DNA from: an uncultured cyanobacterium
Lineage (GTDB): Bacteria > Cyanobacteriota > Cyanobacteriia > Cyanobacteriales > Nostocaceae
NCBI GenBank assembly: GCA_963706595.1
Contig: OY970166.1
Location: forward strand, 2,336,001 to 2,400,000
Direction: 5' to 3'
Length of the DNA: 64,000 nt
The notes under the pieces are model-generated. The model searched no databases, was not told the origin of the DNA, and saw nothing but the letters and a program-made list of their open reading frames with translations. Each line of letters starts with the position of its first letter. Positions within the stretch are counted from its first letter, which is position 1. The position numbers and the translations under genes were made by a program. This document shows, piece by piece, positions 6,239-63,383 of the stretch.

Positions 6239-6275
6239 CTTGTTAAATAGTTTTTTACCTAAAAATTAAAATGAT

Positions 6276-35012: not shown

Positions 35013-37653
35013 ATGACAACCTCACAGGAGAGGATTATCCCGACAGACTTGCGGAACGAAATGTCGCAGTCTTATCTGGAATACGCCATGAGTGTTATTG
35101 TGGGTCGGGCGCTCCCAGATGCCAGGGATGGTCTGAAACCTGTGCATCGTCGCATCCTCTACGCAATGCACGAGCTGGGTCTGATGCACGATCGCCCGTT
35201 TCGGAAATGCGCCCGTGTAGTCGGGGAAGTGTTGGGTAAATATCACCCCCACGGCGATACAGCAGTGTATGATGCTTTGGTGCGGATGGCACAGGATTTT
35301 TCCATGCGATCGCCCCTAATTAACGGGCATGGTAACTTTGGTTCAGTAGACAACGATCCGCCGGCGGCAATGCGGTACACAGAATGTCGTTTGCAAGCCT
35401 TAACTAATCTGTCTCTACTGCAAGACATTGAATCAGAAACCGTCGATTTCATCGATAACTTCGACGGTTCCCAACAAGAACCCACAGTATTACCATCACG
35501 CATCCCCCAATTATTGCTGAATGGTTCCTCCGGAATTGCCGTGGGGATGGCTACGAATATTCCTCCCCACAACTTGGGCGAATTGATTGATGGTTTGGTA
35601 GCCCTGATTCATAATCCAGAGATCACCGACCTGGAATTAATGGAGAACTATATTCAGGGGCCAGACTTTCCCACCGGGGCGCAGGTTTTAGGAACATCTG
35701 GGATTCGGGAAGCTTACACCACTGGACGGGGTTCCATTACCATGCGTGGTGTGGCTACCATTGAAACCGTCGAACAACGAGGACGGCAGGATCGGGAAGC
35801 AATTATTATCACCGAGTTGCCTTACCAAACCAACAAAGCGGCGTTGATTGAAAAAATCGCCGATATGGTGAATGAGAAGCGGTTAGAGGGAATTGCAGAC
35901 ATCCGGGACGAAAGCGATCGCGACGGGATGAGAATTGTAATTGAACTGAAACGCGATTCTTACCCCCGTGTAGTCCTCAATAATCTTTACAAGCAAACCC
36001 CACTCCAAGCCAACTTTGGGGCGAATATGCTGGCGTTGGTGAATGGTAAACCGGAAATCCTCAACCTCAAGAAGTTCTTAGAAGTCTTCTTAGATTTCCG
36101 CATCGAATCCATTACCAGACGCACCCGCTACGAACTGCGAAAAGCCGAAGCCCGTGATCATCTCTTACAAGGGTTATTAATTGCCTTATCGCAGTTAGAT
36201 GCAATTATCGTCTTAATTCGTCACGCACCCGACGCACCCACAGCCAAAGGAGAGTTAATTACAAACTACGGGCTGTCAGAAGTGCAAGCTGACGCTATTT
36301 TGCAGATGCAACTGCGGCGTTTGACTGCCTTAGAAGCAGATAAAATTCGTCAAGAACACGAAGACTTACAAACGCAGATTGCCGATTTGCAAGATATTTT
36401 GGCACGGCGAGAACGGATACTAGAAATCATTGAAACCGAAATCGCTCAGTTAAAAGAAAGCTTTTCTACACCCCGGCGCACAGTAATTTTACCTGGAGAA
36501 GGCGAAATAGATGAGCGTGATTTGATTGCCAATGAAAAAGCGATCATTCTCGTCACAGAGCAAGGTTACATCAAACGGATGCCTGTCAACACCTTTGAAG
36601 CTCAAAGCCGTGCTACCAGAGGTAAAGCTGCTGCTAAGGTCAAAGATGATGATACCATTGAGCATTTCTTGACTTGCTGCGACCATGACAGTATTTTATT
36701 CTTTAGCGATCGCGGTGTCGTCTACTGCTTAAAAGCTTATCAAATTCCCGTGAGTTCCCGTACCAGTCGCGGTACAGCCATTGTACAAATGCTGCCCATT
36801 CCCAGGGAAGAAAAAATCACCTCAATTGTCCCCGTAGACGAGTTTAGCCGGGAAGAATATCTAGTGATGCTCACCAAAGGCGGCAACATTAAGAAAACCG
36901 AACTAGCTGCATTTAGTAACATTAGGGCTAACGGCTTAATTGCCATTTCTCTGGAAGAAGGCGACCAACTGCGCTGGGTGAGACGGGCGCGAGTTGAGGA
37001 CAGCATCTTAGTTGGTTCTCGTCTAGGTATGGCCATTCACTTTAGATGTACCCATGAACAGTTGCGTCCTTTAAGTAGAGCAACTCGTGGAGTCAGAGCC
37101 ATGAAACTGAAGAAAGGGGATGAATTGGTAGGAATGGACATACTTCCAGCCGCCATTCTGGACACCTTAAATACAGATGAACCCGAAACCGCAGAAACCG
37201 AAGCAGTAGAAATCGAAGCAGCAGAAACCGAAGCCGTAGAAACCGAAAATCAGGAGGAAACCGCAGAAGTAGCAAGTACCGGCAGTATACGGCCCTTGGG
37301 TGTTGGTAATTACAATGGGCGGATATGGCAAACGCGTTCCCGTCGCCCAATTCCGACTACAAAACCGTGCTGGTCAGGGTTTAATGGCTACCAAATTCAA
37401 AAACCGTAAAGGCAAAGACAAATTAGCCACCTTACGCATTGTTAATAATGACGATGATGAAATCATGATGGTAACAAAGCGTGGTATTATTATCCGTCAA
37501 GCAGTGAATGCGATTTCCATACAATCGCGGTCAGCAACTGGCGTAAGAGTGCAGCGTCTCGATGAAGAAGATGCCATTAACGGTGTAGCCATAGTTCCTC
37601 CTGATGCAGTTGATGATGTTGACGTGGTGGATGTGCTGGAAGAAGCTGAGTAA
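35013..37653 (+). CDS. gyrA: DNA gyrase subunit A (one apparent frameshift at ~37290)
   Basis: [30 protein letters not shown] catalytic Tyr, pinwheel blades; last blades continue in ORF 37300-37653. Confidence 0.95.
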
Positions 37654-37681
37654 AAAACACAGGGAGAAGCTAATTGTCTTA

Positions 37682-37842
37682 GAGGGTGTTTGAAAAGTTT
37701 TGGGCGAATATAATTCGCTACTACACAAGCAAAGTCCACCTCCGTGGACTAATGGAAAATTAAGGTTTTTAACCCGCGCAGGCGGGTTTAGCTTGTATAG
37801 CCGCGACTTCTAGTCGCCAGGATTGTTTTTCAAACAGCCTCT
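37682..37842. mobile_element. MITE with AGAGGGTGTTTGAAAA / TTTTCAAACAGCCTCT ends
   Basis: Imperfect 16-bp TIRs; internal multi-hairpin repeat. Confidence 0.65.
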
Positions 37843-37844
37843 TA

Positions 37845-37959
37845 AGACTTACGCAAGAACTCTCTAAAACTCTTATTTCTTCGTGTCCTTAGCGTTCTTC
37901 TCCCAAAGGGAGAGGCTAGTGCCAATGCGGTTCGTTTTTCCATGATTTTGCGTAAGTCT
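37845..37959. mobile_element. MITE with AGACTTACGCAA / TTGCGTAAGTCT TIRs overlapping the lnt start
   Basis: Perfect 12-bp TIRs; interior shared with 54212-54270. Confidence 0.7.
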
Positions 37960-39537
37960 CATACCTTACTCCCTTACTTAATCGCCTTAGCCAGTGGTGT
38001 ATTGATGGGGCTAACAGTAGCCCCAGTCGGTGCATGGTTTTTGGCATGGATTGCCCTAGCGCCCCTGTGGGTATTAGTTCTTACCTCTACCTCCTCTCCC
38101 CTCCTCCTAGCCCTAGCCTGGGGTGTGGGCTATCACGGAGTCGCCCTATCCTGGATTACCGGCATTCATCCAATGAATTGGTTGGGCGTTCCTTGGTTGC
38201 CGAGTTTAGCAATTACCTTGTTTTGTTGGTCATTTATCAGCCTCTACGGGGGTTCCCTCGTTACCCTCTGGGCAGCTGCTATGACTCGTTTCACTGTAAA
38301 AAACACTTGGCAGCGTGTTCTAATTGGTACAGCTATATGGTGTGCCTTAGAAAGCCTGTGGAGTGCAAGCCCCCTGTGGTGGAGTTCACTAGCTTATACC
38401 CAAAGTCCCCACAACCTAGTAATATTACACCTCGGTCAACTCTCCGGTGCGAACACAGTCACAGCCGTCATAGTTGCAGTCAATGGATTCATAGCCGAAG
38501 CCTGGATAAACCGCCCAGCAAAAACTTCCTCTGTGTCACGCCATTTGCTACAACGCGGGGAACCCGCGCAAAGCAATGGCTCCTCTGCGCCTCTGCGGTT
38601 GGTAAATAAAAACTTAGCCTCCGCCGCAGCAATATTAATTACCCTTCATCTTCTGGGTTTTTACTTGTATAGCCGTCCCCTAGCCCAACCACCAGAAGCC
38701 GCATTAAAAGTGGGAATTATCCAAGGTAATATTCCCAACGAAATTAAACTTATACCCCAAGGTTTGCGACAGGCGATCGCAGGTTACACCACTGGATATT
38801 ACAATCTAGTAGATCAAGGTGTAGATGCAGTCCTCACCCCAGAAACCGCCTTACCATATTTCCAGCGCGACTTACCCAACACCAGCTTAGTGCAAGCAGT
38901 GGCAGAAAAAGGCGTAGTTGCCTGGATTGGGGCATTTGGACAAAGGGAACGCAGTTATACAAATAGTTTATTTACCTTCACTGGTAACGGTGAAATTTTC
39001 AGCCGTTACGACAAAACCAAATTAGTCCCATTAGGCGAATATATCCCCTTTGAGGGCATTTTCGGCGGCATAATTCAGCGCTTATCACCTTTAAATGCCC
39101 ATCAAGTCCCAGGTTCCACAAATCAGATATTTGATACCCCCTTTGGTCGGGCAATAGTTGGTATTTGTTATGATTCCGCATTTCCCGAATTATTTCGCCG
39201 GCAAGCTGCTGCGGGTGGGCAATTTATTCTCAGTGCTTCTAACGACGCTCATTACACTGCATCTATGCCATTTCAGCATCACGCCTTAGATATGATGCGG
39301 GCGATTGAAACCGATAGATGGACAGTCAGGGCGACGAATACGGGATATTCAGCCTTTGTAGATCCTCATGGGAGAACCTTATGGATATCTAGATATAACA
39401 CATACCAAACTCATGCAGAAACCATATACAAACGACAAACTCAAACTTTGTATGTGCGTTGGGGCGATTGGTTGACAGTTTTGTTGTTGGGTTTGAGTGT
39501 CTTAGATTGGGTTACATCATACCTTTTGGCAAAATGA
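37942..39537 (+). CDS. lnt: Apolipoprotein N-acyltransferase
   Basis: TM N-half, IQGNIP, PETA, YDKTKLVPLGEYIP, ICYD, SNDA, RAIE, RATNTGYSA. Confidence 0.95.
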   Translation: MILRKSHTLLPYLIALASGVLMGLTVAPVGAWFLAWIALAPLWVLVLTSTSSPLLLALAWGVGYHGVALSWITGIHPMNWLGVPWLPSLAITLFCWSFISLYGGSLVTLWAAAMTRFTVKNTWQRVLIGTAIWCALESLWSASPLWWSSLAYTQSPHNLVILHLGQLSGANTVTAVIVAVNGFIAEAWINRPAKTSSVSRHLLQRGEPAQSNGSSAPLRLVNKNLASAAAILITLHLLGFYLYSRPLAQPPEAALKVGIIQGNIPNEIKLIPQGLRQAIAGYTTGYYNLVDQGVDAVLTPETALPYFQRDLPNTSLVQAVAEKGVVAWIGAFGQRERSYTNSLFTFTGNGEIFSRYDKTKLVPLGEYIPFEGIFGGIIQRLSPLNAHQVPGSTNQIFDTPFGRAIVGICYDSAFPELFRRQAAAGGQFILSASNDAHYTASMPFQHHALDMMRAIETDRWTVRATNTGYSAFVDPHGRTLWISRYNTYQTHAETIYKRQTQTLYVRWGDWLTVLLLGLSVLDWVTSYLLAK

Positions 39538-40879: not shown

Positions 40880-40900
40880 TATTTAATTTGCATTTGTGGA

Positions 40901-43420: not shown

Positions 43421-43446
43421 CTCATAAATTGCTCATAGGGTAGTTA

Positions 43447-43667
43447 TAGGACTCCTATTTGAGTTTTGTTGGCGTAGCTTATAAACACGTAGTTGACTGA
43501 CAGGCTTAAAATAGTTCATTAGACGTAGGTTGGGTTAAGCGCAGCGCCACCCAACGCGACCAATGATGTTGGGTTTCCTTACGTCAACCCAACCTACAAT
43601 TTTTTTGCAATATTTTAAGCTTGTCACGCCAATACTTATTTTTTTCATAAATCAAATCGGATTCCTA
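43447..43667. mobile_element. Three nested inverted-repeat elements
   Basis: Outer TIR 43447-43462/43652-43667; middle TIR 43498-43513/43611-43626; inner GTAG REP doublet 43525-43597. Confidence 0.75.
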
Positions 43668-43731
43668 TTACATATAGCCCTTGAATACTATCAGGGCTGT
43701 TTAATTACCAAATCCATCGCCAAAGCATTCA

Positions 43732-44712: not shown

Positions 44713-44877
44713 TCCGTAGCATCTGTTCTAGCATTATTATCTGCGTTTATCTGCGTGCATCTGCGTTTAATTATTACTGCTTGTACCTTAATTAAATGAA
44801 GAATTGCTATATCGCATATCTTAACGCAATATTTGGAATTAGCGGCGCACATTATCCTTCTCCGAAATAACTAGATA

Positions 44878-49202: not shown

Positions 49203-49284
49203 CGCATCAATACATTAACTGACTGGGCTACTTTACCTGTTTGATCATCTGCACTGCCAAAGAACCGTCGCCCTGGTTCGGCAA

Positions 49285-49956
49285 TCAAATTAGGAGGGCA
49301 ATAGCAATAAGTGCGAATCCAGAGACCAGCAGGTTGCCTATAGCTACAGCTAAGAGCTTGTACAGCCTGTTTTGGGTATTGGTTTTCTGTTGCTGGGCCT
49401 GCTGCATCAACTGTTGAGAGACCTGCTCTAAACGTTCTGGGGTGATGTTAGGGTCTGGGGTCTCGGTGTTGGACTGAGCTATTTCTAACTGTTTTAAGGC
49501 TTGGGTTGATTGGTAATCAATATTCCCGATGGCCTGATCGCGAAGCTGAATGGTATCTCGAAATCCCAAAACCCCTGAGAGAATAAAGACCACGCCTAGC
49601 ACTAAGCAAAACCGGGTAACAATCCGTTTGAGGTAACGAGCGTCGAGCAAACCAAGACATAACAACGCCAGACCAGAGATCAGCACAATGCTGCGATCGC
49701 TAACCATGCGGAGGACACTAAATCGCCATTCCGCGGCCAGAAAATTCAGGGGTAACGCCACGCCAGTTAGGTCAACCAGAAACCCCGCAATGCAAGCCAA
49801 CCCCACAATTAGTGCCAGCTTATGCCCTACAGACTTGAAGCGCAATGGAAAACTGTTCAGCAGCTGTTTAGTATTCGTCCGCACCCATTTAGTCCATCCC
49901 AACTTAGGTAGTCTGATTGCTCCTAACTTAGGTCGTCTGATTGCTAGTAAACACAT
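49285..49956 (-). CDS. HpsJ-like membrane protein associated with the cyanoexosortase
   Basis: VGLACIAGFLVD, EWR...DR motifs, TM helices plus Gln-rich coiled coil; true start may be further downstream. Confidence 0.75.
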   Translation of the reverse strand: MCLLAIRRPKLGAIRLPKLGWTKWVRTNTKQLLNSFPLRFKSVGHKLALIVGLACIAGFLVDLTGVALPLNFLAAEWRFSVLRMVSDRSIVLISGLALLCLGLLDARYLKRIVTRFCLVLGVVFILSGVLGFRDTIQLRDQAIGNIDYQSTQALKQLEIAQSNTETPDPNITPERLEQVSQQLMQQAQQQKTNTQNRLYKLLAVAIGNLLVSGFALIAIALLI

Positions 49957-50199
49957 GATAATCTCATCAAAATCAACACTTGGGCAGGGGGAAGAGGTTC
50001 ATTTTCCCCAACCCTTGGTGGATGGGCATTTATAACTGTGCTATCGCGCGGCGGCGATAACACAGAGAATTTTCTCTTAAAATAGCCGTTAGCCATACAT
50101 CCCTGAAAAAACATAGGGTTTTGTGCTTTTCGTCCTAACTGATCAAATAATGCCTCCTGGCAAATTGCTAGGAAACAGAAACACAAGTTAAGTTTAGGT

Positions 50200-50820
50200 T
50201 TAAGACTCTTCTTTTGCTACTTCTTGCTGGCGTTTCTTACGCATTGCAGCTATCCACATACCTACTAGACCAGGTAACATCGCTGGAGTGGGAATTACGG
50301 GGTCGGGGGCGGGTACGAAGTCTAAGTTGAAGATTTCAGCTCTTGATCTAAGCCCCCCAGTACCGCCGCTTGTAAGAGTTGTGATGCGAAATCCGAAAAC
50401 ATCACCTGCGACAACATTTGCAGAGAATGGAAGAGTAGATTCACTGAGAATAGTTGCCAATGGAGTTAGTACATCATTCAACTGAAATTCAAGTTGAGAT
50501 GTGCCAGTCTGACGGGGTTGGAAGTTCCAATCAAAGTTGAAAGTGCCATCTGCTACACCTGTTATTAAGTAAGTACTAAAGGTATTAGGTGTAGTTAGAG
50601 GGCTACTACGAGAGGCGAACTCAATAAAATCAGGAGCGTTGCTCTCATCTAGAAATCCACTCGCATTTGGGCTATTGCTCAAAGTCCAATTGCTTGGATC
50701 GAAATCACCTTCAAAACCAGCAGCATAGCTGGGTGCAGCCATTACCAAACTGCCACAACATACAGAAGCAGTCGCTGCTGCAACTAAGAAACCACGATTC
50801 AGTGTGCTTTGCGCGAACAT
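50200..50820 (-). CDS. PTPA-CTERM sorting-domain surface protein
   Basis: Signal peptide ending APSYA; C-terminal IPTPAMLPGLVGMWIAAMRKKR; GAGGAG RBS before ATG 50820. Confidence 0.88.
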   Translation of the reverse strand: MFAQSTLNRGFLVAAATASVCCGSLVMAAPSYAAGFEGDFDPSNWTLSNSPNASGFLDESNAPDFIEFASRSSPLTTPNTFSTYLITGVADGTFNFDWNFQPRQTGTSQLEFQLNDVLTPLATILSESTLPFSANVVAGDVFGFRITTLTSGGTGGLRSRAEIFNLDFVPAPDPVIPTPAMLPGLVGMWIAAMRKKRQQEVAKEES

Positions 50821-51106
50821 AGAAATGTATCTCCTCACTTATTAATACGACGTTTTTACGTATAAATATCCATTTCCTGATGATTTATTGAAAATCTGAC
50901 CAGTTTTAAGTTGGATTTTCTCTTTTCATCTCAGTGAAATCGACTATGTACACAATATCATAGGTATATGGTAGTGCCAATAAACTTCATCAATATTTTG
51001 CAAAATTACTTTTAACATCATAATTCCGGATTATCACAGTCATAACTTGTAATTCTGACGACAGAGGCAAAATATACTGAAATTGTTTCATATAAATACT
51101 GATTGT

Positions 51107-51670
51107 TTAAGGTCTTGCACAAGCTGCTTCACCAGCAACAGGATCGGGATAAATAGCTAAAGTGTGATAATCAGGAGCAATATCTTCATATAATATTCTG
51201 AAAGTATACAGTTTACTTCTACTTTGCTCTTCAGTAATAACTGTTAAAAGTGTATTGTCTGTTTGAGGCAGTCCGGGAATATTCAGCCTTTCAATTCGCC
51301 GCAGTTGAATCACATTGGCTGACGATTTTGCACAATCTCCTGAAGTCAAATTACGTTCTGCACCAAACTGCATACACATCGGTCCATCAAAATCCATAGT
51401 TACCTGTGATGGGTCGTTTAACCACACTTTTTTAATGGTTTCGCCAGCTGGCAAAAAGCTTAAATTGGTTCCTTGCTGATAGGAAACTTTGATAGTAGGT
51501 ACGACTCCTCCTAAACCTTGTGCATGGCAAGAAAACATGGAACGGAGAACGGAATTATTAGCTAAAACTCGACCTGTAAATAATAATATAGCTGCGGAAA
51601 AAATCAGAGAAGTCAGAGACAATAAATTAGGATATTTTAATTTTTTTTCTATCAAGTTAATATGTTTCAT
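51107..51670 (-). CDS. Cyanobacterial T4SS component (VirB9-like)
   Basis: Signal peptide; GTNLSF...GETIKKVWLNDPS and TLLTVIT...LYTFRI beta-rich motifs; last gene of the cluster. Confidence 0.65.
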   Translation of the reverse strand: MKHINLIEKKLKYPNLLSLTSLIFSAAILLFTGRVLANNSVLRSMFSCHAQGLGGVVPTIKVSYQQGTNLSFLPAGETIKKVWLNDPSQVTMDFDGPMCMQFGAERNLTSGDCAKSSANVIQLRRIERLNIPGLPQTDNTLLTVITEEQSRSKLYTFRILYEDIAPDYHTLAIYPDPVAGEAACARP

Positions 51671-51766
51671 GGCTGCAAATATGGAAGTGAGTTGATGACA
51701 AACATAAAAGAGGTTTAGATACCCGACTTCTTAAAGAAGTCGGGTATCTATCTATTCAACTACGAA

Positions 51767-53311
51767 CTATAATTGCATGGTTCTATTGATGTATATTTCT
51801 ACTTCTTTACCAGCTGGCATAAACCAAACATTTGTTTGTTGCATCATGCGGGCGATCGCTTGTTGATTACGTTGTGAAATTTGGGGTACTACAGAGTTTA
51901 AACCACCTTCTAAAATTCCAGCCGGAATATTGCGTCTATTGTTATTGTTGGTGACGACGGTGCTACCATCCCCAACTGTGACTCTGGATTCAGTCCGATT
52001 AAATAACTCGGCTCCTTTACCAATTCCTCCCAAAACAAATAGCCCTAAATCCATTCCCGCTATCGATGTTCCTTGATTGGGATATTTATCTGCTACTAAA
52101 GGTTTCCCTTGGGGAGCGCGAACCATCATGGCATTACTGGGTAAGCTCTTTTCTCTGAGTTCGCCGTTATCTTCTGAAATCACTTTAACTACATTCAACC
52201 GCAGTAGCCCTTGTTCGGAAATAGAACTAATTTCAGCTAATAATTCCGTATTCACAGGTAAAGCGATCGCACCATCAACTGATTTTAGTGGATTTGTCAA
52301 ACGCAAAACAAATACATTACCGTCTTCATTACTTTCATTATTCTTTGACTTAGTAGTTTCTCCAAATACAGCTGTTGCTAAAACAGCTTTGACACTACTC
52401 CCAACTTTGATAGATTTCGAGCTTTGTGATGGTGCTTGGCTGACTAAATTATCTGGCTGTGGTGGCGTTGGTTCCGGGTTAGAATTGCTGACTTGGGCTG
52501 CTTGAGGATTAATTTTTGGTACAGATAAAGCTGTATCCACTCTCGATTGAGCAGTGGTATTCACCTGACCATAGCTACCTAACTTGGCTAACCTTGTCCA
52601 TTCCTCCAGGGGGTCTGGTGGAGATGGTGGAGTCTCTGGAGTTGCAACTGCTATCGGTGCGGGTAGAGGTGTAGGCGCTATAGCAACTGGCGCAGCAGCA
52701 GGCCTTTCCACAATTCGCTCCACAGTGACTATACGAGGTTGAGGTATAGAAGCCGTTTGCACAGGTTTAGGTATGCTTTCTCTCACCTGTGGAGTTTCCA
52801 CCCGCGCAGCTACTCTATTTCTGAGATTTTGTTGAGCTGCTGTCACTGTCTGTGCTTGTTCAGCTAGGGCTAATTTCGTTTTGAGAATCTCAACTTCCTG
52901 CTCTAAATTACGCTGCGGGGATTCACTGATTGTAGGTAATGGTGCTGTTGAGGAAACAGGATTATTTTTTGGCTGTTGATTGCTGGTATTCATTACCTGC
53001 GATAAAAATACCCCAGCAACTACCACTATAACCAAGGTAGCACTACCCACCAAAGCTAATTTAGCAAAGGGATTATCTGCAAGAGATTGCTCAGTTTGGA
53101 CTTCTTCTGGTTGAGACTGGGAAAGTTGCAAATTAGCTGAGTCTGTTTCTACTGTTTCAACGTTGACTTGTGGAGATTCTTCTTCAAAGCCAACCAATTT
53201 AGCCATTCTCGATTCCCAATCTGAAGAGTTTACTTCTGGTTCCTGCTGGTCTGGGATTGGTTTGACTAAATATTTTGCAGAAAGTTCGGGATGAATTGAA
53301 TAAGAAGTCAT
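51767..53311 (-). CDS. TrbI/VirB10-like T4SS core protein
   Basis: N-terminal TM, coiled coil, Pro-rich linker, C-terminal beta domain ending MPAGKEVEIYIN. Confidence 0.8.
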   Translation of the reverse strand: MTSYSIHPELSAKYLVKPIPDQQEPEVNSSDWESRMAKLVGFEEESPQVNVETVETDSANLQLSQSQPEEVQTEQSLADNPFAKLALVGSATLVIVVVAGVFLSQVMNTSNQQPKNNPVSSTAPLPTISESPQRNLEQEVEILKTKLALAEQAQTVTAAQQNLRNRVAARVETPQVRESIPKPVQTASIPQPRIVTVERIVERPAAAPVAIAPTPLPAPIAVATPETPPSPPDPLEEWTRLAKLGSYGQVNTTAQSRVDTALSVPKINPQAAQVSNSNPEPTPPQPDNLVSQAPSQSSKSIKVGSSVKAVLATAVFGETTKSKNNESNEDGNVFVLRLTNPLKSVDGAIALPVNTELLAEISSISEQGLLRLNVVKVISEDNGELREKSLPSNAMMVRAPQGKPLVADKYPNQGTSIAGMDLGLFVLGGIGKGAELFNRTESRVTVGDGSTVVTNNNNRRNIPAGILEGGLNSVVPQISQRNQQAIARMMQQTNVWFMPAGKEVEIYINRTMQL

Positions 53312-53442
53312 ACAATTTTAGATTTTAGATTTTGGATTTTGGATTTTAGATTGCGGATTTTCGATTGATTCTACAGATAAATATGGCTGGGTGCTTGTAA
53401 AATTAAGGCGTATTGCTCATGGTGTATTAAATGGTAATAATG

Positions 53443-54123
53443 TCAAGAACAATTGTTGTCTTTGATATCACATATCTCATAAATTTCTAGCCTAGCTTCG
53501 CCCAAACGGTAAGCGGCTAAATGCCACGGTAATGGTTTGGCTGGGAGTGAAATTGCTGGTTCATCTATGGCGCGGACTAAAATTTTTTTATTGAACGCAG
53601 TTGATATTCCCAGATTATTAGAACCACTAAAATTTAATTGATTAGCCAATATTTCTATTTTCCATTCACCATCAGCTATTTTTGTGGGTTGAGAGACTTT
53701 TTCTACTATTAATATATATTCAGTTGCCTGATTAATATTGGCTAATTGTCCTGTAGGATTTAAGTTAGTAATTTCTGCCTGAAACTTGGGTTTCAAATTA
53801 GGCGCTAAGAGTTGTGAACTAATTTCCCATACTGTAACAGGTGGCTGTTTCTGTGACCAAGTAAGCATCAGAGTCATGGTTTCACCCACAAAGCGGCGGA
53901 TTGTTTCTGGATGTCTTTGATCAGTTTGTTGAGGATTTACAGTAATCGCCCGACCATCAACAAGTTGCACCAAGCTTTCGGGTGTTAACTGCCGTTTTAA
54001 ATCCTGAATCATAGAACCGTGGAACAAAAGTAATAGCAAGCTAAATAGATGTAAACCGAATGTTCCTACAGCTAATAATGGCAATATACTACTTTTTTTG
54101 TTTTCTGGCTTAACTAATTGCAT
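53443..54123 (-). CDS. Cyanobacterial T4SS component (VirB8-like)
   Basis: Single N-terminal TM, LVQLVDG, IRRFVGETM; paralogous to the upstream gene. Confidence 0.65.
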   Translation of the reverse strand: MQLVKPENKKSSILPLLAVGTFGLHLFSLLLLLFHGSMIQDLKRQLTPESLVQLVDGRAITVNPQQTDQRHPETIRRFVGETMTLMLTWSQKQPPVTVWEISSQLLAPNLKPKFQAEITNLNPTGQLANINQATEYILIVEKVSQPTKIADGEWKIEILANQLNFSGSNNLGISTAFNKKILVRAIDEPAISLPAKPLPWHLAAYRLGEARLEIYEICDIKDNNCS

Positions 54124-54304
54124 AAATACGCACCATATAAATTATCAATAAGAACATCTCAATTAAAAAAAACTGACGAAGACCGAACCAAAAAACCTAT
54201 CAAACCCTCTTTCCTTGGCGTTCTTTGCGTCTTCTCCCAAAGGGAGAGGCTAGCGCCAAGGCGGTTCGTTCTTCCATTACTCCCTTTAATTCATTAATAA
54301 AAAA

Positions 54305-55129
54305 CTATCTTGTAAAACTATCAGAACTTATTTGCCTACCACAAGGGTTTGATTTATCCTCACCGAGATTACTATAATTATCCAATAAACATAAATTCCG
54401 AATTTCGTAAATTTCTAATTTGTCAGCCCGATTGCTATAAATTGCTTTTTGAATGTCGGTAGTATTATTAGCTAGAGGATAGGGAAAATAATCTACTGCA
54501 CGCACCAGGAAGTCTTTATTAAAGGGTGTGACTATTTTTCGATCATCATCCTGTTTTTTTTGAATCAGGTCGGCTACCATACCGACGCGCCACTTACCAG
54601 GGGCTATTTGTTCGGGAGGATAAATTCGTTGGATAAGTAATTCTGCTGATATCACTTGACTAGGATTGTTAGAGAATACTTCTGGTGGTGTCATTTGCGC
54701 GATCGCACTTAAAAAACCTTTACGAAAATCTTCGGATAGTGCAAAACTCGCGACCCAACTGCTGGTAGTCACTTTTTGGCTACCACCTGCTAGGGTTCTC
54801 ACCTGGATTCCGGGATCTGGTTGGGGTTTTGCAGCTGCTTCTATAGTTTGTGGTGGTAGAGTTCCCGACCAGTTAAACATGGCTATCATGGTTTTACTGA
54901 TGAATTGGCGAATGGCTTCGGGGTCTCTGGCTAAATCATCAACAGCAGCGACGGGTTGACCATCGATCATTTGTACAAAGTTAGGCGGTTTTCTCAGGCT
55001 GAGTTGGCGAATATTCAACCCTTGCAAGATGAATAAAACTAACACTAATAGATGTAAACTAAAGGTGGCGATCGCAAAGATTTTTAAAACATCTCTGGTG
55101 GGTTTTCTTTTCTGAAGTAAATTGGTCAT
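54305..55129 (-). CDS. Cyanobacterial T4SS component (VirB8-like)
   Basis: Single N-terminal TM, FVQMIDG, IRQFISKTM..MFNWSG, GKWRV, FNK..LVRA. Confidence 0.65.
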   Translation of the reverse strand: MTNLLQKRKPTRDVLKIFAIATFSLHLLVLVLFILQGLNIRQLSLRKPPNFVQMIDGQPVAAVDDLARDPEAIRQFISKTMIAMFNWSGTLPPQTIEAAAKPQPDPGIQVRTLAGGSQKVTTSSWVASFALSEDFRKGFLSAIAQMTPPEVFSNNPSQVISAELLIQRIYPPEQIAPGKWRVGMVADLIQKKQDDDRKIVTPFNKDFLVRAVDYFPYPLANNTTDIQKAIYSNRADKLEIYEIRNLCLLDNYSNLGEDKSNPCGRQISSDSFTR

Positions 55130-55195
55130 ACAATTTTGGATTTTAGATTTTGGATTTTGGATTTACCCTACAGATATATCTAGAGGATTGAAAAT

Positions 55196-56245
55196 TTATA
55201 TCCTATCTTTGACCACAGCAGTGGTATTATTAATCGCACTAAAAACCGCAAATCCTCCAGCCCCAGCCACAGCTAAAGATAATAATGGGGCTAAAATTCC
55301 TAGAAAAATTATGAACCACATTAAGTCAGGATTAGCATTAGGATTTTCGGCTGGACCATTAATTACAACTGCGGCGGTGACAGCAGCAATTATATTAAAT
55401 GAAATCTTGGCAATTCCCGCCGAGAAAAAACCTGTCAGCCACGCATAAATCGGTTTACCAGCTACAGGTAGCAAAGATGCACCCACAGCCAACGGACCTA
55501 AAGCAGCTATCAGCAACATAGAAGCTTCTATTAAATTTTGAAAGGCATATTGCAAGGAAATTAAAAAGCTTTTAATACTGGTTTGGGCTGTATTACCCAA
55601 CAAAGAATTAAAGGTAGTATCTGATAAATTCTCTGTCCCAAATTTCAGCGAAATTACCTGATTTTCCAGTCTTTGAATCCAGATTCTATTCCCGTATAAA
55701 TTTCTATATTCTTGCCAAAGGTTATCTATTTGGTCGCTGGCTTGAGCAAAACATTGGGTTTGTTGTTCTCCTGTGAGTGATTGACAAGGACGTAGTAAAG
55801 AACCAGCCACTTCTTCAGCCAAACTCATATTTAGTGCTTGCTGATAAGTTTGTTCAGCATCTGCTGTAGTCACTACTTGCTGATTGACTGTATTAATAAA
55901 GTTTCTAACTTCCAAGGTCAAATTAGAAAGTATGCTACCATCTCCCCCATTACTTAATAACATGACTACGATAAAAGGCCAAATTAAACCCGTTATTGGG
56001 CGGGAATATTCACTGTATATAACATCTTTGAGCCATTGCATCATAAAAAATAATAGAGTTCCTACAGCAAAAAATACACCCAGATTTGTGAGCGCTCCAT
56101 ATAAATTGTTACTGGTATTATTTTGTAATAAATCTAGCCATTGATTATCCCAACTTTCAGCCATGCTTCTCGCCGTTACAGCACCACTATCGAAAGTTTC
56201 ATTGATACCAATTTCCGGGAATATTTGTAAAATATAAAGCTGCAT
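55196..56245 (-). CDS. VirB6/TrbL-like polytopic membrane protein
   Basis: Multiple TMs around a large loop; LLIAALGPLAVGASLLP...AWLTGF; position in cluster. Confidence 0.7.
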   Translation of the reverse strand: MQLYILQIFPEIGINETFDSGAVTARSMAESWDNQWLDLLQNNTSNNLYGALTNLGVFFAVGTLLFFMMQWLKDVIYSEYSRPITGLIWPFIVVMLLSNGGDGSILSNLTLEVRNFINTVNQQVVTTADAEQTYQQALNMSLAEEVAGSLLRPCQSLTGEQQTQCFAQASDQIDNLWQEYRNLYGNRIWIQRLENQVISLKFGTENLSDTTFNSLLGNTAQTSIKSFLISLQYAFQNLIEASMLLIAALGPLAVGASLLPVAGKPIYAWLTGFFSAGIAKISFNIIAAVTAAVVINGPAENPNANPDLMWFIIFLGILAPLLSLAVAGAGGFAVFSAINNTTAVVKDRI

Positions 56246-56261
56246 TTTAGTTCACAATTTC

Positions 56262-57047
56262 CTAATTCTCTTCTCTACCAAACAAATCGATTTGGGCTGT
56301 AGTCCGCATCAGTCTTGCAGTTTCCGTGGCTGAATCTACTCGACGCGAGCGATTCATCTCATCCATTTGCTGGGAAATACTTGCTAAATTTAAATTAGAG
56401 TATTGTAGAGATTGATTTGATTGCACTGTCTGAGCCAATGTTTCTCCAATAATTTTTGATTGCTCACTTTGAATCTTCAGAGTTTGTAATTGCAAATTAA
56501 TTTGACCAACATTTGTCTGTGCTGATAACTGTTGAGCCGCATCTTGAATTAGCGGAATTTTGCCCATAATTTCAGTGATTAAGTTTTGGTTATTTTGCTC
56601 TGCATTATTGGCAGTTTCTATAATCGTGATAATTGTGTTCTCAGTCTGATCTAACTTGTCTTTTAACCGTCGTTGTCCATCTCTACCCATGAGACTTTCT
56701 ACTGAACTGCGAGTAATTAGACGGTTCAGTTCATTACTTACCGCATTTGATTGCACAACCGGATTATTTTCAAATTTATCTGTTGTCGGGTTAAATAATA
56801 TATCCTGGCGAAAACTTTTCCCAGCCTCAATCGGATTAGGTAAATTCAATTCTCCTGTGGAATTATTTAGCGCGTTTTGACCTCTAACCTCTAAAGGTCT
56901 TAAGGTTTCGCTGAGATTATTTCTGAGATAATTTTGCATATCCACAGAGTAATATTGAAAGTCTGTCCAAACTCTGCCTAATTGTGCCATTGCTGGTAGC
57001 ACTAATAAGCCGGAAAGAGTTAGTGTCAAAAATGTAGTTTTTCGCAT
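56262..57047 (-). CDS. Exported helical T4SS component (VirB5-like position)
   Basis: Signal peptide MRKTTF...PAMA; Gln/Asn-rich coiled coil; between VirB4 and the VirB6-like gene. The longer ORF-track start lies in a repeat. Confidence 0.65.
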   Translation of the reverse strand: MRKTTFLTLTLSGLLVLPAMAQLGRVWTDFQYYSVDMQNYLRNNLSETLRPLEVRGQNALNNSTGELNLPNPIEAGKSFRQDILFNPTTDKFENNPVVQSNAVSNELNRLITRSSVESLMGRDGQRRLKDKLDQTENTIITIIETANNAEQNNQNLITEIMGKIPLIQDAAQQLSAQTNVGQINLQLQTLKIQSEQSKIIGETLAQTVQSNQSLQYSNLNLASISQQMDEMNRSRRVDSATETARLMRTTAQIDLFGREEN

Positions 57048-57189
57048 ATATTTTGAAGGGATGAGGGAGGAACGAACCGCCAAGTACGCCAAGTGCGCCA
57101 AGGAAAGAGGAAGGAAAGAGATTCGGTGCAGTTATTCAAATCCAAATTTAATTCTCTGCGCCTCTGCGCCTCTGCGTGAGATTCCTTTC

Positions 57190-59937
57190 TCAACTCCCCC
57201 GCAACGAAGCGATTAACTGGCGTGCAAATACAGAAATTGCTTCATATTTATCCCTGTGTTGTAGCATGGCTTTTTGACGTGCAGTTTGTTCATTGGGGTT
57301 GTTAGCAACTACTGCTAATTGCTCAAACCCTGGATAGTAACGACAGAATGTATAAATGCCGTTATCATCTAACAACCATTGACTATAAATACCTTCTTTA
57401 CGAGGAAAAAAGCTTTCTGTAGCATTACGCGCAATAATATCACGGGGATATTTTAAAATGTTCACAAAACTATCTACTGCTACTGGTTGAATTCTCCCAA
57501 TTAATCTGGTTGACAAGTTTTGTAAAATCTTTGATGCGGCTTTAGATTTGGCGATAGTATCAGGGTCTTGTGCTGATAAAATGACTCGAATCCCGGCTTT
57601 CGCACCGTTAGCGCAAATTCTGCCCACTAAATCAGCAATTTGATCAAATTCAAATAATATTGGGGCTTCGTCAATGAAGAAGATAGAAGCTGGACTACTT
57701 AACGCCCGTCGTAAAGCGGCGGAATAAGCACTTAAAGACAGTACGGCTGCGTCTTCGTTATCTGAGAGGTTCCGCAATGCAAATACTAAAAGTTGTGCGT
57801 CGGTGGGAAAGCTAGATGGTGCAGAAATAGACTGTCCGACGCGACTCGAAAGCCAAAACCGTAACCGCAGTTGAATTTGACTGAGTGCGTCATCTACGCG
57901 ACCACTCAGAGAATCTAATTGCAGATGTTCTGGGGAACAGAAACAGAGAAAGTCTTTTAAAGTGGGGGTTTTTTGCCAAGCTTCACTCCCAAATCCGCCG
58001 GCTATAGCTTGTTTATATCGTTCTTGAATCCCTGTATCTGCAAAGAAAGCGCTTAAAGCCAAGTTGAGTAGGGAACGCACGGTTTGGGACAACAGTTGGT
58101 TTTCGGTGGATGACCCTAAAACCATTGTCATTAATGCTGATTCTAAGAACCCAGTATAATCCAATAGGCGATCGCGTTGTATTTCTGGAGAGAGCGATCG
58201 CAAATCAGGCTGCTCAAATAAATTATTGGCTTGTTTAGAAATATCAAAATAGGCTCCATTCCCCTCCATAAATTCTGTATAGTCAGTAAAGGTAGATGAA
58301 CCATCAGGTTTAGGAAAATCCAAAGCCACCACAGGAATCCCATGCGCTAAAGCCTGAGTTAAAATTCCCGATACCAAAACCGATTTACCAGCACGAGTAG
58401 TAGCAAACAAAGCTAAATTTTTGTGTTGGTTAAACAAATCTAAATGTATGGGAGTTCCCCCTTCTTCAGCAATTAATTCAAAACCGTGACTATCTCCTGC
58501 TTTAGTTAACACTAAAGGCATTAATCCGGGAACTTCACTGGTTAAATATAACTGACGACGGTTGAAAGGTTTTACTAACAAACCCTCCCAAACTATGGGT
58601 AAAGATTGCAGCCAAATTTTCCAAGTATATTCTATTTCTCTAATGACTTGCGCTGGTCTTTGAAAACAGTTTTCTATATATCTTGTGGCTTCATCTAATT
58701 TGGCTACAGTGGGACGATGAACAAAAATAACTATGCTTGTGTATATCGGTACTGCTCCTTCATATAATTGTTCTTGGGCTGCTACCGATTTTTTTAATTT
58801 TAATTGAGCATTAACATCAATAGTTTTACTTTTTTCTTGAGCCATAAGTGCTGTCATATTCGACTGTTTCAGCACTCGTTGCAAAGTGTTTTTAACTATA
58901 GCTGGATTAGCGGCGGTTAACTCGCAAAATATTTCTGTATCTACTATTGTTTCTCTGGCTAATAATTCCCATAAATAACGCATCTGAGCAAATTTATTTG
59001 GCCAACCACCGGGCTTTTCTAGAAACGTTAATGCCCCAATATAGCGATTTTTGACATTTACCCAACGGCGGTCAGCACAGGGTACATTAGACTCCATCAA
59101 CAAAGTTGTACTGTGGATATTTTCGATCAGTAACTTGGTACTAGCTAAGTCTGAATTAACTTGCTCATGTAGTCCATTTTCATCTAACTGAATTAATTGA
59201 GGAATTTCTATCGGTTGTGTATCATTAAATTTTTTCCAGGCGTGTTCCCATAATTGTTCCGCATTTAAAGGTTTGACATCTAACCCCATTTTGTTAGATA
59301 AAAGCTGTTCCCAACGAGAAAATCCTTGTTGGTAAGCTTTAATAATCAGAGTTTCGATGCGCTGGTTTTGAACTTCTGCCAGTTCACCTTTAAATTTTAA
59401 CCACCATAATTCACCTTTGGATAAAAGTTTTTCAATCCAATCATCTGTATGTGTAGTATTCGGTTCAATAGTATAAGTCACATAAATTTGGAGAAATTTC
59501 GGTTTACGAATTCCAGATTTAGTAAGTTCTTGAATTCTAGCTCTTTCTGCTGTTAATAAGAATTTAATATCCCGTGATGGTGTCCGCTTGACTAAATCGG
59601 CTAGTTCTGTTTGTCGTTTGGTGTCAGAACTAAAAGACCCTATATGTAAAGTCATTTTTTCACCTTCAGGAATATCTTTTAAACCTGATTCGATATTATT
59701 AAAAATTGTGTCTATTTGTTCAGACCGTAAAGTAGTATGAATGCCTCGACACTCAAACCCAAACACAAAGCAAAACCGATCTTTTTGGGTTTCTTTGTTC
59801 AAAATGTAAGCGCCGATATCACGACCATCCAGGGAAATGCGTAACATTGTTGCCAAATGTAAAGCATCTTCAAATGGTGTTAATCTACTTTCTTTGCCGG
59901 CGATGCTTAGGCTTTGTTTTCCGATTTTTTGCTTCAT
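57190..59937 (-). CDS. virB4: VirB4-family T4SS ATPase
   Basis: 915 aa; Walker A ATTRAGKS, Walker B FFIDEAP, GAKAGIRVILSAQ; overlaps the VirB3-like gene. Confidence 0.85.
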   Translation of the reverse strand: MKQKIGKQSLSIAGKESRLTPFEDALHLATMLRISLDGRDIGAYILNKETQKDRFCFVFGFECRGIHTTLRSEQIDTIFNNIESGLKDIPEGEKMTLHIGSFSSDTKRQTELADLVKRTPSRDIKFLLTAERARIQELTKSGIRKPKFLQIYVTYTIEPNTTHTDDWIEKLLSKGELWWLKFKGELAEVQNQRIETLIIKAYQQGFSRWEQLLSNKMGLDVKPLNAEQLWEHAWKKFNDTQPIEIPQLIQLDENGLHEQVNSDLASTKLLIENIHSTTLLMESNVPCADRRWVNVKNRYIGALTFLEKPGGWPNKFAQMRYLWELLARETIVDTEIFCELTAANPAIVKNTLQRVLKQSNMTALMAQEKSKTIDVNAQLKLKKSVAAQEQLYEGAVPIYTSIVIFVHRPTVAKLDEATRYIENCFQRPAQVIREIEYTWKIWLQSLPIVWEGLLVKPFNRRQLYLTSEVPGLMPLVLTKAGDSHGFELIAEEGGTPIHLDLFNQHKNLALFATTRAGKSVLVSGILTQALAHGIPVVALDFPKPDGSSTFTDYTEFMEGNGAYFDISKQANNLFEQPDLRSLSPEIQRDRLLDYTGFLESALMTMVLGSSTENQLLSQTVRSLLNLALSAFFADTGIQERYKQAIAGGFGSEAWQKTPTLKDFLCFCSPEHLQLDSLSGRVDDALSQIQLRLRFWLSSRVGQSISAPSSFPTDAQLLVFALRNLSDNEDAAVLSLSAYSAALRRALSSPASIFFIDEAPILFEFDQIADLVGRICANGAKAGIRVILSAQDPDTIAKSKAASKILQNLSTRLIGRIQPVAVDSFVNILKYPRDIIARNATESFFPRKEGIYSQWLLDDNGIYTFCRYYPGFEQLAVVANNPNEQTARQKAMLQHRDKYEAISVFARQLIASLRGS

Positions 59938-60262
59938 GGTTAACTTCTAACAAGCTTTGATAACGTGCAAAGCCTCTTGTCCAAGTGGGAACTCCCACGA
60001 ATTTGCTTAAAAAGCGCCAACTCCTACCACCACTTAAAATCCACCAAGTTGCTATTCCCCAACCGGCAATTAATACTGTCCATAACCATCTTTGGAAATC
60101 ATCTGCAAAAATCCCCCCAAAAACTCCATTAACTACAAAGTAAGCCGCTAAAATAATCACAATCCAAGGAAAGATTTGGTCAGCAGGAATTGGCCCTAAT
60201 GATGGTTGTGACCCTAGTATCTGATTGACTGGACGAAATTCTGGCTCTCTTTCTTGAGTCAT
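59885..60262 (-). CDS. VirB3-like membrane protein
   Basis: FRPVNQILG..PSLGPIPA, two TMs, directly upstream of virB4. Confidence 0.7.
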   Translation of the reverse strand: MTQEREPEFRPVNQILGSQPSLGPIPADQIFPWIVIILAAYFVVNGVFGGIFADDFQRWLWTVLIAGWGIATWWILSGGRSWRFLSKFVGVPTWTRGFARYQSLLEVNHEAKNRKTKPKHRRQRK

Positions 60263-60337
60263 AAATTTTTAGTTCGTAATTCGTAATTACTATTGCATTG
60301 GGTTCTTAACCATTGAATATTTTAGTTAGGTACTTAT

Positions 60338-60817
60338 CTAATTACTACTATCACCAATTACAAAGCCTGTCAGGACATCAGCAACAGTGACAGCGACTAC
60401 TACTAATAAAGGAACTCTGGCGATACTCTGCCAATCTTCATCTTTACGCACTGCATTAATTACACCAATCAGAGAAACTGCAATATAGAGTAAATAAATT
60501 GCCCTTAACACATTGAATATTAAGCTGACGGCTGGTTGGCTATTGTTACTGTTTCCTGTCCCTTGAGTTAAAGTATTGCGGAAAAAATCTTCAGCTCTAC
60601 CAAAAAATTGTGCATATACAGGTGCAGCAAAATAGTCTAACCAGAATAAACACAGGATGATAGATCCTGCTAATATTTGTAATAGTATAAGCCATCGCTT
60701 TGGCAAATGCACTTGCTGTCCAACTTGTTGCATGACTATTGCGATTAAACTACCCGCTAGCAAACAAAAAAGCAGCATGGGACTTTTTAAGCTAATTACG
60801 CTTAAAAACACACGCAC
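60338..60817 (-). CDS. VirB2/TrbC-like pilin
   Basis: Long hydrophobic leader, processing-like site APVYA-QFF, two hydrophobic helices; first gene of the cluster; start uncertain. Confidence 0.65.
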   Translation of the reverse strand: MRVFLSVISLKSPMLLFCLLAGSLIAIVMQQVGQQVHLPKRWLILLQILAGSIILCLFWLDYFAAPVYAQFFGRAEDFFRNTLTQGTGNSNNSQPAVSLIFNVLRAIYLLYIAVSLIGVINAVRKDEDWQSIARVPLLVVVAVTVADVLTGFVIGDSSN

Positions 60818-61347
60818 AAGCCATCAAAAATGGCACGGATTCAACTATGCTCAGATGCCATGATTCCCACAACCTTTGTCAATTTGTCAGATGTTTTCGT
60901 TGCACTAGCAGTTAAACCTTTGCTGAGTCTTCTCACACTGGATTTTCTAGACATTTACCAATTTCCCTGTTACGTATCACAAATATCAGTCGTATTCGTT
61001 CTTAAAATGTTTTACCATTTCACACAGCTAAGTTTCATACTTAAGTAATAAATTTATATCACCAAAATATAATATAGGTTCAACGTGTTACATTTTATTA
61101 AAGATGTATTAATCAATTCTTAAGATTTAGTTAAGTCAAATGATTTTCTTTAAAGTAATATATTATACCAAGTAGCTAAAAGCTTTATTTACTGATAGTA
61201 TATAAAGCTACTATAAAGAGGCTATGAGTTTATTGAAAGCTTATCACTATATCACGATCAGTAACAGCAATTATAAATTCAAAAAATCAAGATTTTGAAT
61301 TTAGCTTTTCTCAGGCTAAAGCAGTGCCTCTGAGCTTTTTAAGTCTT

Positions 61348-62030: not shown

Positions 62031-63383
62031 TTAGAGAAATTCGGCACGAAACTGATTAACAACCCGATCTAGTCCCACGGAATGAGCAGCTTTGAATAAA
62101 ATGCGATCGCCTGTTTGCACAAATGTCTTTAATCGAGCTACCAAATCAGCATGAGTGGTAAAGCATTCTGATGGGATACCCTCTGCACTTTGAGCGATCG
62201 CTTCTGCATCTGTGCCATCCACTAAAACCAGCAAACCGTCTAATTGCAACCTCTGCACCGTTTCACCGACTCTTTGGTGCAATTGCAGCGATCGCTCTCC
62301 CAATTCTTTCATTGCACCTAATACCGCAATTTTGCGTTTTCCTGGTGTATCTGCCAATAATTGCAAAGCTGCTTCCATAGCTTCTGGTGCAGCATTATAA
62401 GTCTCATCTAAGAGAATAATATCATGAGGCAGGCTAAACTGTTGCGATCGCCCCGTAGGCATATTCACTTTCACACCATTTTGCAGCCTTGACCAGTGGA
62501 TTCCCAAAACCTGCGCCACAGCTAAAGCTGCTAAAAAATTACTGGCATTGTGACGACCAGGTAAAGGTAAAGGTAGCTGCATTCCCCCAACTTTGATCGT
62601 TTCGTTATCGATCAGCACTCCTTGGATATCGCCAGCAGACAAGCCATAACTCACAACTTCCCCAGACCAAACTTGCTGCGCTGTAGCCATTAACAGAGGA
62701 TTGTCATGATTGAGAATAGCTACACCATCTGCAGGCATTTCGGCTAATAATTCACATTTAGCCGAGCGATCGCTTCTTCAGAACCCAATAACTCAATATG
62801 TGCGGTTCCCACATTGGTAATCACCCCAATATTCGGAAGGGCTATTTGCGTCAGTTCAGCGATTTGTCCCTCACCCCGCATGGCCATTTCCACCACAGCA
62901 TAGTCATGTTCTGTACCCAGTTCTAACAAAGTTTTGGGAACGCCGATTTCGTTATTAAAATTGCCAAAAGTTTTGTGAACTCGTCCCTCAGTTGCTAATA
63001 CTGCGGCGATGAGTTCCTTAGTTGTGGTTTTACCTACAGAACCCGTCACCCCAATTACTGGAATATTCAAGCGATCGCGCCACCATCTGCGCCAGTTGCT
63101 GATATGCTGCTAAAGTGTTGTTAACTTGCAATACAGGTAAACCCGGATTTTCATAATCACCATCTACAATAGCCGCTATTGCACCTTGAGCGATCGCATG
63201 GGAAACGAAATCGTGTCCATCAAAATTTTCCCCTCGTAAAGCCAAAAATACTTCCCCAGGTTTGATCATCCGGGTATCTGTTTGGATACTGCTGCTGACT
63301 TGTGTTAAAGCAGCTTCAGATAAATTGATAGGTTGGGCGCACAGAACTGACAACAATTGGGAGATGCTAACAGACCAAGGCAT
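62031..63383 (-). CDS. murF: UDP-N-acetylmuramoyl-tripeptide--D-Ala-D-Ala ligase (two apparent frameshifts)
   Basis: Three consecutive ORFs: DTR..GEVFLALRGENFDGHDF; GVTGSVGKTTTKE, NFNNEIGVP, TNVGTAH; DETYNA, LGAMKELG. Confidence 0.93.

Follow-up and report, generated by a model that had tools for sequence, protein, structure and literature searches.

Why would a cyanobacterial chromosome keep a nearly full set of type IV secretion system (T4SS) genes with no coupling protein or relaxase gene beside it? The question is raised by a 64,000-nucleotide stretch of an uncultured member of the Nostocaceae (assembly GCA_963706595.1, contig OY970166.1; G000:C1:2336001-2400000), which we call the window and to which coordinates refer unless another sequence is named. 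On its minus strand, nine co-oriented open reading frames (ORFs) occupy positions 60817-51107 and encode proteins of 159, 125, 915, 279, 349, 274, 226, 514 and 187 amino acids. Proteins that cluster with those of the window mostly carry the name Nodularia. An earlier sequence-only reading of this DNA had listed nine intact genes in the order pilin-like, VirB3-like, VirB4, exported protein, VirB6-like, two VirB8-like paralogues, VirB10-like and VirB9-like, which the ORFs bear out, and had proposed a long-resident chromosomal system derived from the cyanobacterial mating-pair formation class MPF_C and kept for a job other than conjugation. Our comparisons support that proposal: the VirB4 proteins form one clade, the operon occurs family-wide under purifying selection, and no type IV coupling protein (T4CP) or relaxase was found. 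The operon is ordinary in its parts and unusual in its state, as a domesticated MPF_C variant. Judged from the genomes compared, a plasmid-type MPF_C operon was very probably fixed in the chromosome early in the heterocyst-forming family, where it shed alr7212, VirD4 and the relaxase, acquired a second VirB8 by duplication and now acts as an envelope machine under host control.

The plasmid counterpart is the MPF_C cluster of pCC7120alpha (alr7204-alr7213, with MobV encoded by alr7199; PMC4027160, PMC8600333). The class was defined on this alpha plasmid at a time when, according to the section cited, there were no experimental studies (Guglielmini 2014, PMC4027160); plasmids are also treated in PMC8600333. 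With the plasmid tags anchored by the coordinates of alr7204, alr7206 and alr7213, genes 1 to 9 matched, in order, alr7204 (40% identity), alr7205 (41%), alr7206 (53%), alr7207 (25%), alr7208 (32%), alr7209 twice (35% and 27%), alr7210 (26%) and alr7211 (44%). The operon thus shares the plasmid gene order at 25-53% identity, and its VirB4 nests among cyanobacterial plasmid VirB4s. Two features of the class, a VirB4 of the cyanobacterial group and a compact locus of alr7204-alr7211 homologues, are present, and a homologue of alr7212 is absent. The likeness to the alr7204-alr7212 run drawn in the earlier reading therefore holds for the order of alr7204-alr7211 but is not one-to-one. Unlike the plasmid cluster, the operon is chromosomal, single-copy and family-wide, with alr7209 duplicated, gene 9 shortened or lost, and no alr7212, VirD4, MobV or integrase.

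In mobile MPF_C copies, an alr7212-like gene stands between VirB9 and VirD4, and it was lost together with VirD4. Its product (L091 22913-24109; family F7, L066-L084) is a secreted protein without a known family and with a cysteine-containing C-terminal part, possibly a mating-pair stabiliser. One genome (G020; loci L064 and L069) holds, alongside a domesticated copy that is intact, chromosomal mobile-type copies that are decaying, with stops in virB4.

No T4CP, relaxase or integrase gene was found in the window or in the 19 kb beyond it, the latter read from translations, as the sequence-only reading had stated for the flanks. The genome-wide check gave the same picture: alr7212, VirD4 (alr7213) and MobV (alr7199) had no match with tblastn or hidden Markov models (HMMs) anywhere in the genome, no T4CP was detected with the plasmid VirD4 query and HMM or with Pfam PF02534 and PF10412, and no relaxase of the MOBV, MOBP, MOBF or MOBQ types was detected with the MobV query and HMM or with PF01076, PF03432, PF08751 and PF03389, with the controls of the Pfam searches detected and with MOBH, MOBC and MOBT not searched. 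As the genome is a single 5.57 Mb contig that is 94% complete, plasmids may be missing from the assembly. HerA/DUF87 was considered as a substitute coupling protein and set aside; the only clear match is a split gene 0.5 Mb away. A lone ORF of 1050 amino acids, 2.6 Mb from the operon (G000:C1:4972701-4975850), resembles the plasmid DUF3854 proteins that follow VirD4 and is a plasmid remnant.

The absence extends to the family. Among 49 family loci from 48 genomes (about 20 kb fetched for each), none carries alr7212, VirD4, MobV or the plasmid integrase; the 27 mobile-type loci include alr7212 in 17 cases and VirD4 in 16. Genome-wide searches revealed no T4CP in 16 of 33 carrier genomes (cyanobacterial VirD4 query, own genome included) or in 28 of 40 further carriers (PF02534), so that 44 of 73 carriers have none detected and 29 have one somewhere. 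These figures bear on the idea that mobilizable plasmids equipped with a coupling protein and a relaxase use the operon in trans as a resident mating channel. The channel and pilus genes are all intact and the 29 genomes with a T4CP speak for such use, but the T4CPs that were checked belong to separate mobile MPF_C clusters, alr7212 is lost, and purifying selection across a family is hard to explain by an occasional benefit to plasmids. Together with the 44 genomes in which no T4CP was found, this leaves in-trans use very unlikely.

How long has the operon been resident? VirB4 occurs at 74-98% identity in 32 of 36 family genomes, as a single copy in 31 of them and in two copies in one, and the 24 genomes taken from the order's other families yielded no VirB4 of this clade. 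The family VirB4s form one clade of 35 rows (FastTree support 100; all trees were built with FastTree only), apart from plasmid-type copies at 31-63% identity. A search with gene 7 matched 266 of 301 family genomes; after 22 matches with E weaker than 1e-20 were set aside, a count by eye gave about 244 carriers. Fragmented carriers account for two of the 22, and VirB4 is missing from one of the 244. Outside the family, the clade was found in one of 354 genomes (G490) and on an 880-kb linear replicon of Gloeothece verrucosa; both copies are rearranged, with no gene 9 in the fetched stretch. In G. verrucosa, two co-oriented genes precede the rearranged operon (L092 11737-14124), one of them with a PEP-CTERM-like tail. 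Non-carriers are scattered over the rpoB tree, which implies repeated loss, and the operon is dispensable.

All nine genes are under purifying selection. In 11 genomes within the genus (45-55 pairs), median dN/dS was lowest in VirB4 (0.05) and gene 5 (0.06) and reached 0.15-0.23 in the other genes, and dS of the operon genes (0.27-0.68) lay near that of rpoB (0.32). In 35 genomes, the virB4 and rpoB trees had 11 of 32 splits in common (shuffled null 0.26, maximum 2) with a patristic rho of 0.70, compared with 16 of 32 splits and a rho of 0.80 for the control pair rpoB-hmpF, and with rho values of 0.91-0.95 among the operon genes themselves. Of the 37 strong splits in the operon trees of 47 genomes, 23 were at odds with a strong split in the rpoB tree, a conflict that single-gene DNA trees overstate. 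Because the agreement between virB4 and rpoB is partial and that among the operon genes is strong, descent appears to be largely vertical with some replacement of the whole block. The tree comparison suggested in the earlier reading thus separated one clade from the plasmid copies, and the vertical descent holds mostly but not strictly.

These data also bear on an ordinary or decaying integrative and conjugative element (ICE), which we consider hardly credible. The operon tree agrees less well with rpoB than that of the control gene, and an element that moves would account for the copies in G490 and on the linear replicon of Gloeothece and for the two copies in one genome. However, no integrase, MobV, alr7212 or VirD4 was found in the 49 loci (att sites were not searched as such), nearly all carriers have a single copy, dN/dS is far below 1, and an lnt-gyrA neighbour is common to distant genera. 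Both outcomes that had been named as refuting a domesticated machine, an ICE with its coupling protein, relaxase and att sites nearby and a strain-specific, decaying cluster, failed to materialise, the att sites not having been searched as such and the operon being present in about 244 of 301 family genomes.

Assignment of the nine proteins, all encoded on the minus strand, relied on homology, models and position to differing degrees. Family matches in Pfam and NCBIfam were limited to gene 8 (TrbI, above the cut-off) and gene 3 (TraC/VirB4, E 1e-15 and 4e-11, below the cut-off), and sequence searches of the PDB with four alignments gave no significant match. Gene 3 (57190..59937) encodes the VirB4 ATPase, the sole VirB4 found in the genome, and keeps Walker A (ATTRAGKS) and Walker B (FFIDE). 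The G-to-A change in Walker A was discarded as a sign of inactivation, the same change being present in the nearest mobile copies (L065-L067). Gene 8 (51767..53311) encodes VirB10/TrbI (PF03743 at 43.6 bits against a cut-off of 35), with one N-terminal membrane segment and, in the alignment, a helical antenna region that aligns with the plasmid copies; all3984, labelled 'TrbI', is a different gene.

Genes 6 (54305..55129) and 7 (53443..54123) encode homologous VirB8-like paralogues, of which gene 6 lies closer to plasmid alr7209 in the tree and gene 7 is restricted to the chromosomal clade. The AlphaFold model of gene 7 (mean predicted local distance difference test, pLDDT, 79.7) matched the stalk-arches chains of the R388 T4SS best in Foldseek (E 3.7e-6), followed by VirB8, TraM and DotI, and at the level of the model the VirB8 fold is confirmed. 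When genes 6 and 7 were modelled as a complex, the score was 0.77 against 0.00 for the best control, with at least 67% of contacts agreeing between runs and a partner pLDDT of at least 77; the mark used for this score was reached by 116 of 157 solved pairs and by 2 of 215 mismatched pairs. As solved VirB8 oligomers exist, this score may reflect likeness to them and not binding. An apparent double VirB8 in the mobile loci L085 and L086 was a clustering artefact caused by a fused ORF and was not counted as a duplication.

Gene 9 (51107..51670) is confirmed, again from its model, as the N-terminal (I-layer) domain of VirB9 only: comparison with the N-terminal domain of R388 TrwF (VIA) gave Z 11.3 and a root-mean-square deviation of 2.9 over 106 aligned residues, and ten chains reached Z of at least 8. 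Its 187 amino acids include no O-layer domain, and the helical C-terminal tail of the plasmid copies is absent. Labels for genes 1, 2, 4 and 5 (putative pilin, VirB3, VirB5 and VirB6) draw on alr homology, position and membrane pattern. Gene 2 (59885..60262) is alr7205-like and VirB3-like by position and membrane segment; gene 4 (56262..57101; likely start MRKT, 18 codons into the ORF) encodes a probable exported protein, VirB5/TrbJ-like, with an Atlas score of 0.94 to a cluster auto-named TrbJ; and gene 5 (55196..56245) encodes a polytopic, VirB6-like membrane protein with four hydrophobic segments. None of these three has a Pfam or NCBIfam match.

Gene 1 (60338..60954) encodes the probable VirB2-like pilin, judged by alignments and hydropathy. 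It has a long membrane leader, a cleavage-like site (PxxA|QFF) whose loose pattern is matched in 125 of 150 distant relatives, and a mature part of about 90 amino acids with two hydrophobic helices and 80% identity across the clade; Atlas leads for it stayed below 0.9. In close relatives the protein has about 204 amino acids and starts at 60954; in this assembly the open frame covers 60338-60817 and the leader (60818-60954) contains two one-base shifts. One-base frameshifts also split murF (two), gyrA, dnaK and herA, and the leader shifts, like these, are probably indel errors of the assembly (window 62031-63383, 35013-37653 and 60818-60954; L246 777-2778; G000:C1:1876182-1877913).

What might such a machine do, and when is it made? 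In PCC 7120, the orthologues of genes 1-9 are all0471-all0463, annotated as unknown proteins and identified here through the gene 7 orthologue P0151 (230 amino acids) and the order and lengths in a supplement of PMC3141674. They form one 12.1-kb transcription unit (PMC10287535). In the PMC3141674 supplement, which is unreplicated with one value per time point, their levels are low (0.1-3.5 reads per kilobase per million, RPKM, at 0 h). When nitrogen is withdrawn, all0469 (virB4) is up 5.9-fold after 12 h and 5.6-fold after 21 h (33 to 200 reads) and all0468 (gene 4) 6.7- and 6.8-fold, whereas all0471 and all0465 are nearly unchanged; a 3-4-fold rise, from tiny counts, is also seen for plasmid alr7206 (PMC3141674). 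The gene 9 orthologue all0463 appears in a list of heterocyst-specific genes (PMC4365693). Conserved control by NtcA was rejected: the three regions found by chromatin immunoprecipitation in the PCC 7120 operon are about as many as the density over the whole chromosome predicts (2143 regions in 6.4 Mb), and the GTA of a putative NtcA site is kept in only 7 of 49 sequences. No convincing motif of a known regulator was found upstream of gene 1.

VirB4-driven assembly of a short, low-abundance pilus is the use that we favour, at slightly short of an even chance. In the part of PMC9259494 cited, the pilus mode needs only VirB2-VirB11, and VirD4 is needed for transfer. Because the retained genes are the pilus-building set, this would be the simplest working mode. 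VirB4, the only ATPase, would act with VirB3 and VirB6 to extract the processed gene 1 pilin from the inner membrane; the pilin would be polymerised behind a gene 4 tip, and the filament would cross a VirB8 ring of genes 6 and 7 and then the VirB10 outer-membrane pore, serving contact with or attachment to cells or surfaces. As there is no coupling protein, the usual export of DNA bound to a relaxase, or of cytoplasmic effectors, would not be expected. The proposal draws on the lack of alr7212 and VirD4 in the family loci, the carriers in which no T4CP was found, the intact Walker motifs, the purifying selection, the conservation of the mature pilin-like part, the modelled complex of genes 6 and 7 (with the reservation made above) and the single transcription unit in PCC 7120.

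Several observations weigh against a pilus. It is predicted from genes, and none has been seen. Exposed adhesins are usually less conserved than the putative gene 1 pilin. Pilin profiles gave no significant match to gene 1 (TrbC E 0.31 in 1 of 18 members and in 0 of 51 distant relatives), the section of PMC4027160 cited reports that no VirB2 homologue was found in MPF_C, and all0471 is barely expressed (RPKM 0.6-1.1) without the induction of virB4 (PMC3141674). Of the 49 family loci, 39 carry all nine genes in order and three are cut by a contig end, but seven are without gene 9. Searches outside the locus yielded no gene 9 in three of these genomes, and in two they yielded it only within mobile clusters. 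Versions without it (L057-L062, L051, L092 and L240) come from six family genomes, the Gloeothece replicon and G490, most of them from one sub-lineage, and because they exist the outer-membrane core may do without any VirB9. Finally, none of scyC, hmpF, comEC and the gas-vesicle genes tracked the operon in 40 carriers compared with 40 non-carriers, hand-picked from the 301 genomes, in which kin are not independent. A link to hormogonium motility was dropped (full-length hmpF in 37 carriers and 33 non-carriers, three carriers being without it), as was one between operon loss and gas vesicles (12 of 40 against 14 of 40 at the strict threshold).

The induction of virB4 and gene 4 (5.6-6.8-fold) also fits T4CP-independent export of a periplasmic cargo, such as a protein, a polysaccharide-associated factor or a small metabolite, including scytonemin, through the VirB10 pore in the manner of Bordetella Ptl. 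Some protein-secreting T4SSs without a T4CP secrete from the periplasm, as stated in part of 10.1101/031039, and PMC2726228 cites, in the passage concerned, unpublished data for scytonemin secretion by a T4SS that is not specified. We nevertheless regard export as rather improbable. No conserved cargo gene stands beside the operon, and the locus contains no VirB11. Scytonemin export was rejected as a general job: scyC was detected in 19 of the 40 carriers, against 3 of the 40 non-carriers, and was found neither in the own genome nor in the other 21 carriers; the skew may reflect habitat or kinship.

A further rival is import of DNA, or exchange of chromosomal DNA between filaments, for recombination or repair and without T4CP or relaxase. 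The archaeal Ced/Ted systems, domesticated T4SSs with homologues of VirB2, VirB4 and VirB6, bring DNA into the cell (PMC9905601), and Helicobacter ComB likewise imports DNA (PMC4027160), as parts of these sources state. In favour stand the greater frequency of scyC, a UV-sunscreen gene, in carriers, with the reservation on kinship made above, and comEC, which 39 of the 40 carriers possess. However, comEC is present in all 40 non-carriers, and a competence link was rejected; genes for DNA binding or recombination are not linked to the operon; and since most carriers have a full-length hmpF, which marks the type IV pilus motility system, the usual route of DNA uptake probably exists. DNA import is compatible with a pilus at the level of the parts, and we consider it possible but unlikely. 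The same doubtful standing applies to a more specific form, an ancestral host-regulated T4SS that would move chromosomal DNA or macromolecules between filaments as a bacterial counterpart of Ced, raised in nitrogen starvation, whose VirB8 ring would be heteromeric and whose outer-membrane core would have a reduced VirB9.

Comparison with known exaptations places the operon among them without identity to any. Like Ced/Ted, it is domesticated chromosomal conjugation machinery with one VirB4-type ATPase, a putative VirB6-like channel, a putative pilin and no relaxase found, but it keeps a diderm core (two VirB8s, the VirB9 N-domain and VirB10) and is of independent origin; DNA import is the role of Ced/Ted (PMC9905601) and a possible one of the operon. 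With Helicobacter pylori ComB it shares chromosomal location, a single VirB4 and the lack of a relaxase; it differs in keeping a gene in the VirB5 position, and comEC fails to track it. ComB is derived from MPF_T and is not known to have VirB5; nor is it known to have a T4CP or VirB11, in which it resembles the operon. Bartonella Trw (adhesion) and Bordetella Ptl (periplasmic export) are T4CP-less exaptations, and Rickettsiales rvh and Legionella DotI/DotJ have duplicated VirB8-type subunits; the operon resembles the former in lacking a T4CP and the latter in its two VirB8s. All four are proteobacterial, of MPF_T or MPF_I type, with VirB11 or DotB. In contrast to them, the pilin genes of the operon are not amplified, and it comes as a set of genes with no host cell or cargo assigned.

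The surroundings are younger than the operon in part. Upstream, murF (62031..63383, minus strand, split into three frames in the assembly) lies outside the machine; murF precedes the operon in 16 of 49 loci, so that the murF synteny invoked earlier holds for the genus of the window and its nearest relatives but not family-wide. Downstream, apart from the window itself, lnt is found within the fetched stretch in 11 loci and gyrA in eight, distant genera included. The neighbours named in the sequence-only reading, murF/dnaK and an exosortase cassette, are present, but the cassette is a recent insertion, seen next to the operon at just 3 of 33 loci (that of the window, G001 and G006). The older neighbour is gyrA-lnt (35013..39537, plus strand), which inserted cassettes for siderophore uptake and for the exosortase now hold 11.6 kb apart from the operon. 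The former is a low-GC island between lnt and the operon (39657-48078) with an AraC regulator, a TonB receptor, two periplasmic iron-binding proteins, FhuF and a major facilitator superfamily protein; the latter (48270-50838) is a cyanoexosortase C cassette of CrtC, an HpsJ-like C-associated protein and a PTPA-CTERM protein. A BanI-like restriction enzyme and a C5 methyltransferase are encoded at 4937-7319.

Six spacer repeats are present (51717, 53316, 54212, 55134, 57073 and 60272), of which four motifs were counted at 4-123 copies genome-wide; the spacer between genes 8 and 9 holds a palindromic host repeat or terminator-like hairpin (51716..51750, minus strand). Both these repeats and HIP1 sites occur as previously described, but HIP1 density fails to tell resident from mobile copies: the operon has 6 sites against a genome mean of 7.65 per stretch of equal length, and clusters carry 0-10 sites in chromosomal and 0-9 in mobile copies.

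A description of the chromosomal clade was not found in the full-text literature, with subscription journals, including cyanobacterial secretion reviews, outside coverage. The part of 10.1101/031039 cited lists only MPF_T and MPF_I as protein-secreting classes, one sentence in PMC3158045 states that cyanobacteria possess T4SSs without MOB, and we further drew on parts of PMC8147232, PMC10406281, PMC3141437 and PMC3898017. In the literature covered, no function beyond conjugation is recorded for the cyanobacterial T4SS class. The operon described here is under selection in about four-fifths of the genomes of the heterocyst-forming family, including the genetically tractable PCC 7120, and represents a natural minimal T4SS with one ATPase, two VirB8s and half or none of VirB9. 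If inter-filament transfer of DNA or macromolecules were true, a domesticated MPF_C machine would for the first time have a function demonstrated for it. If the operon indeed works as an envelope machine, multicellular cyanobacteria would possess an unrecognised pilus, export route or DNA-exchange route.

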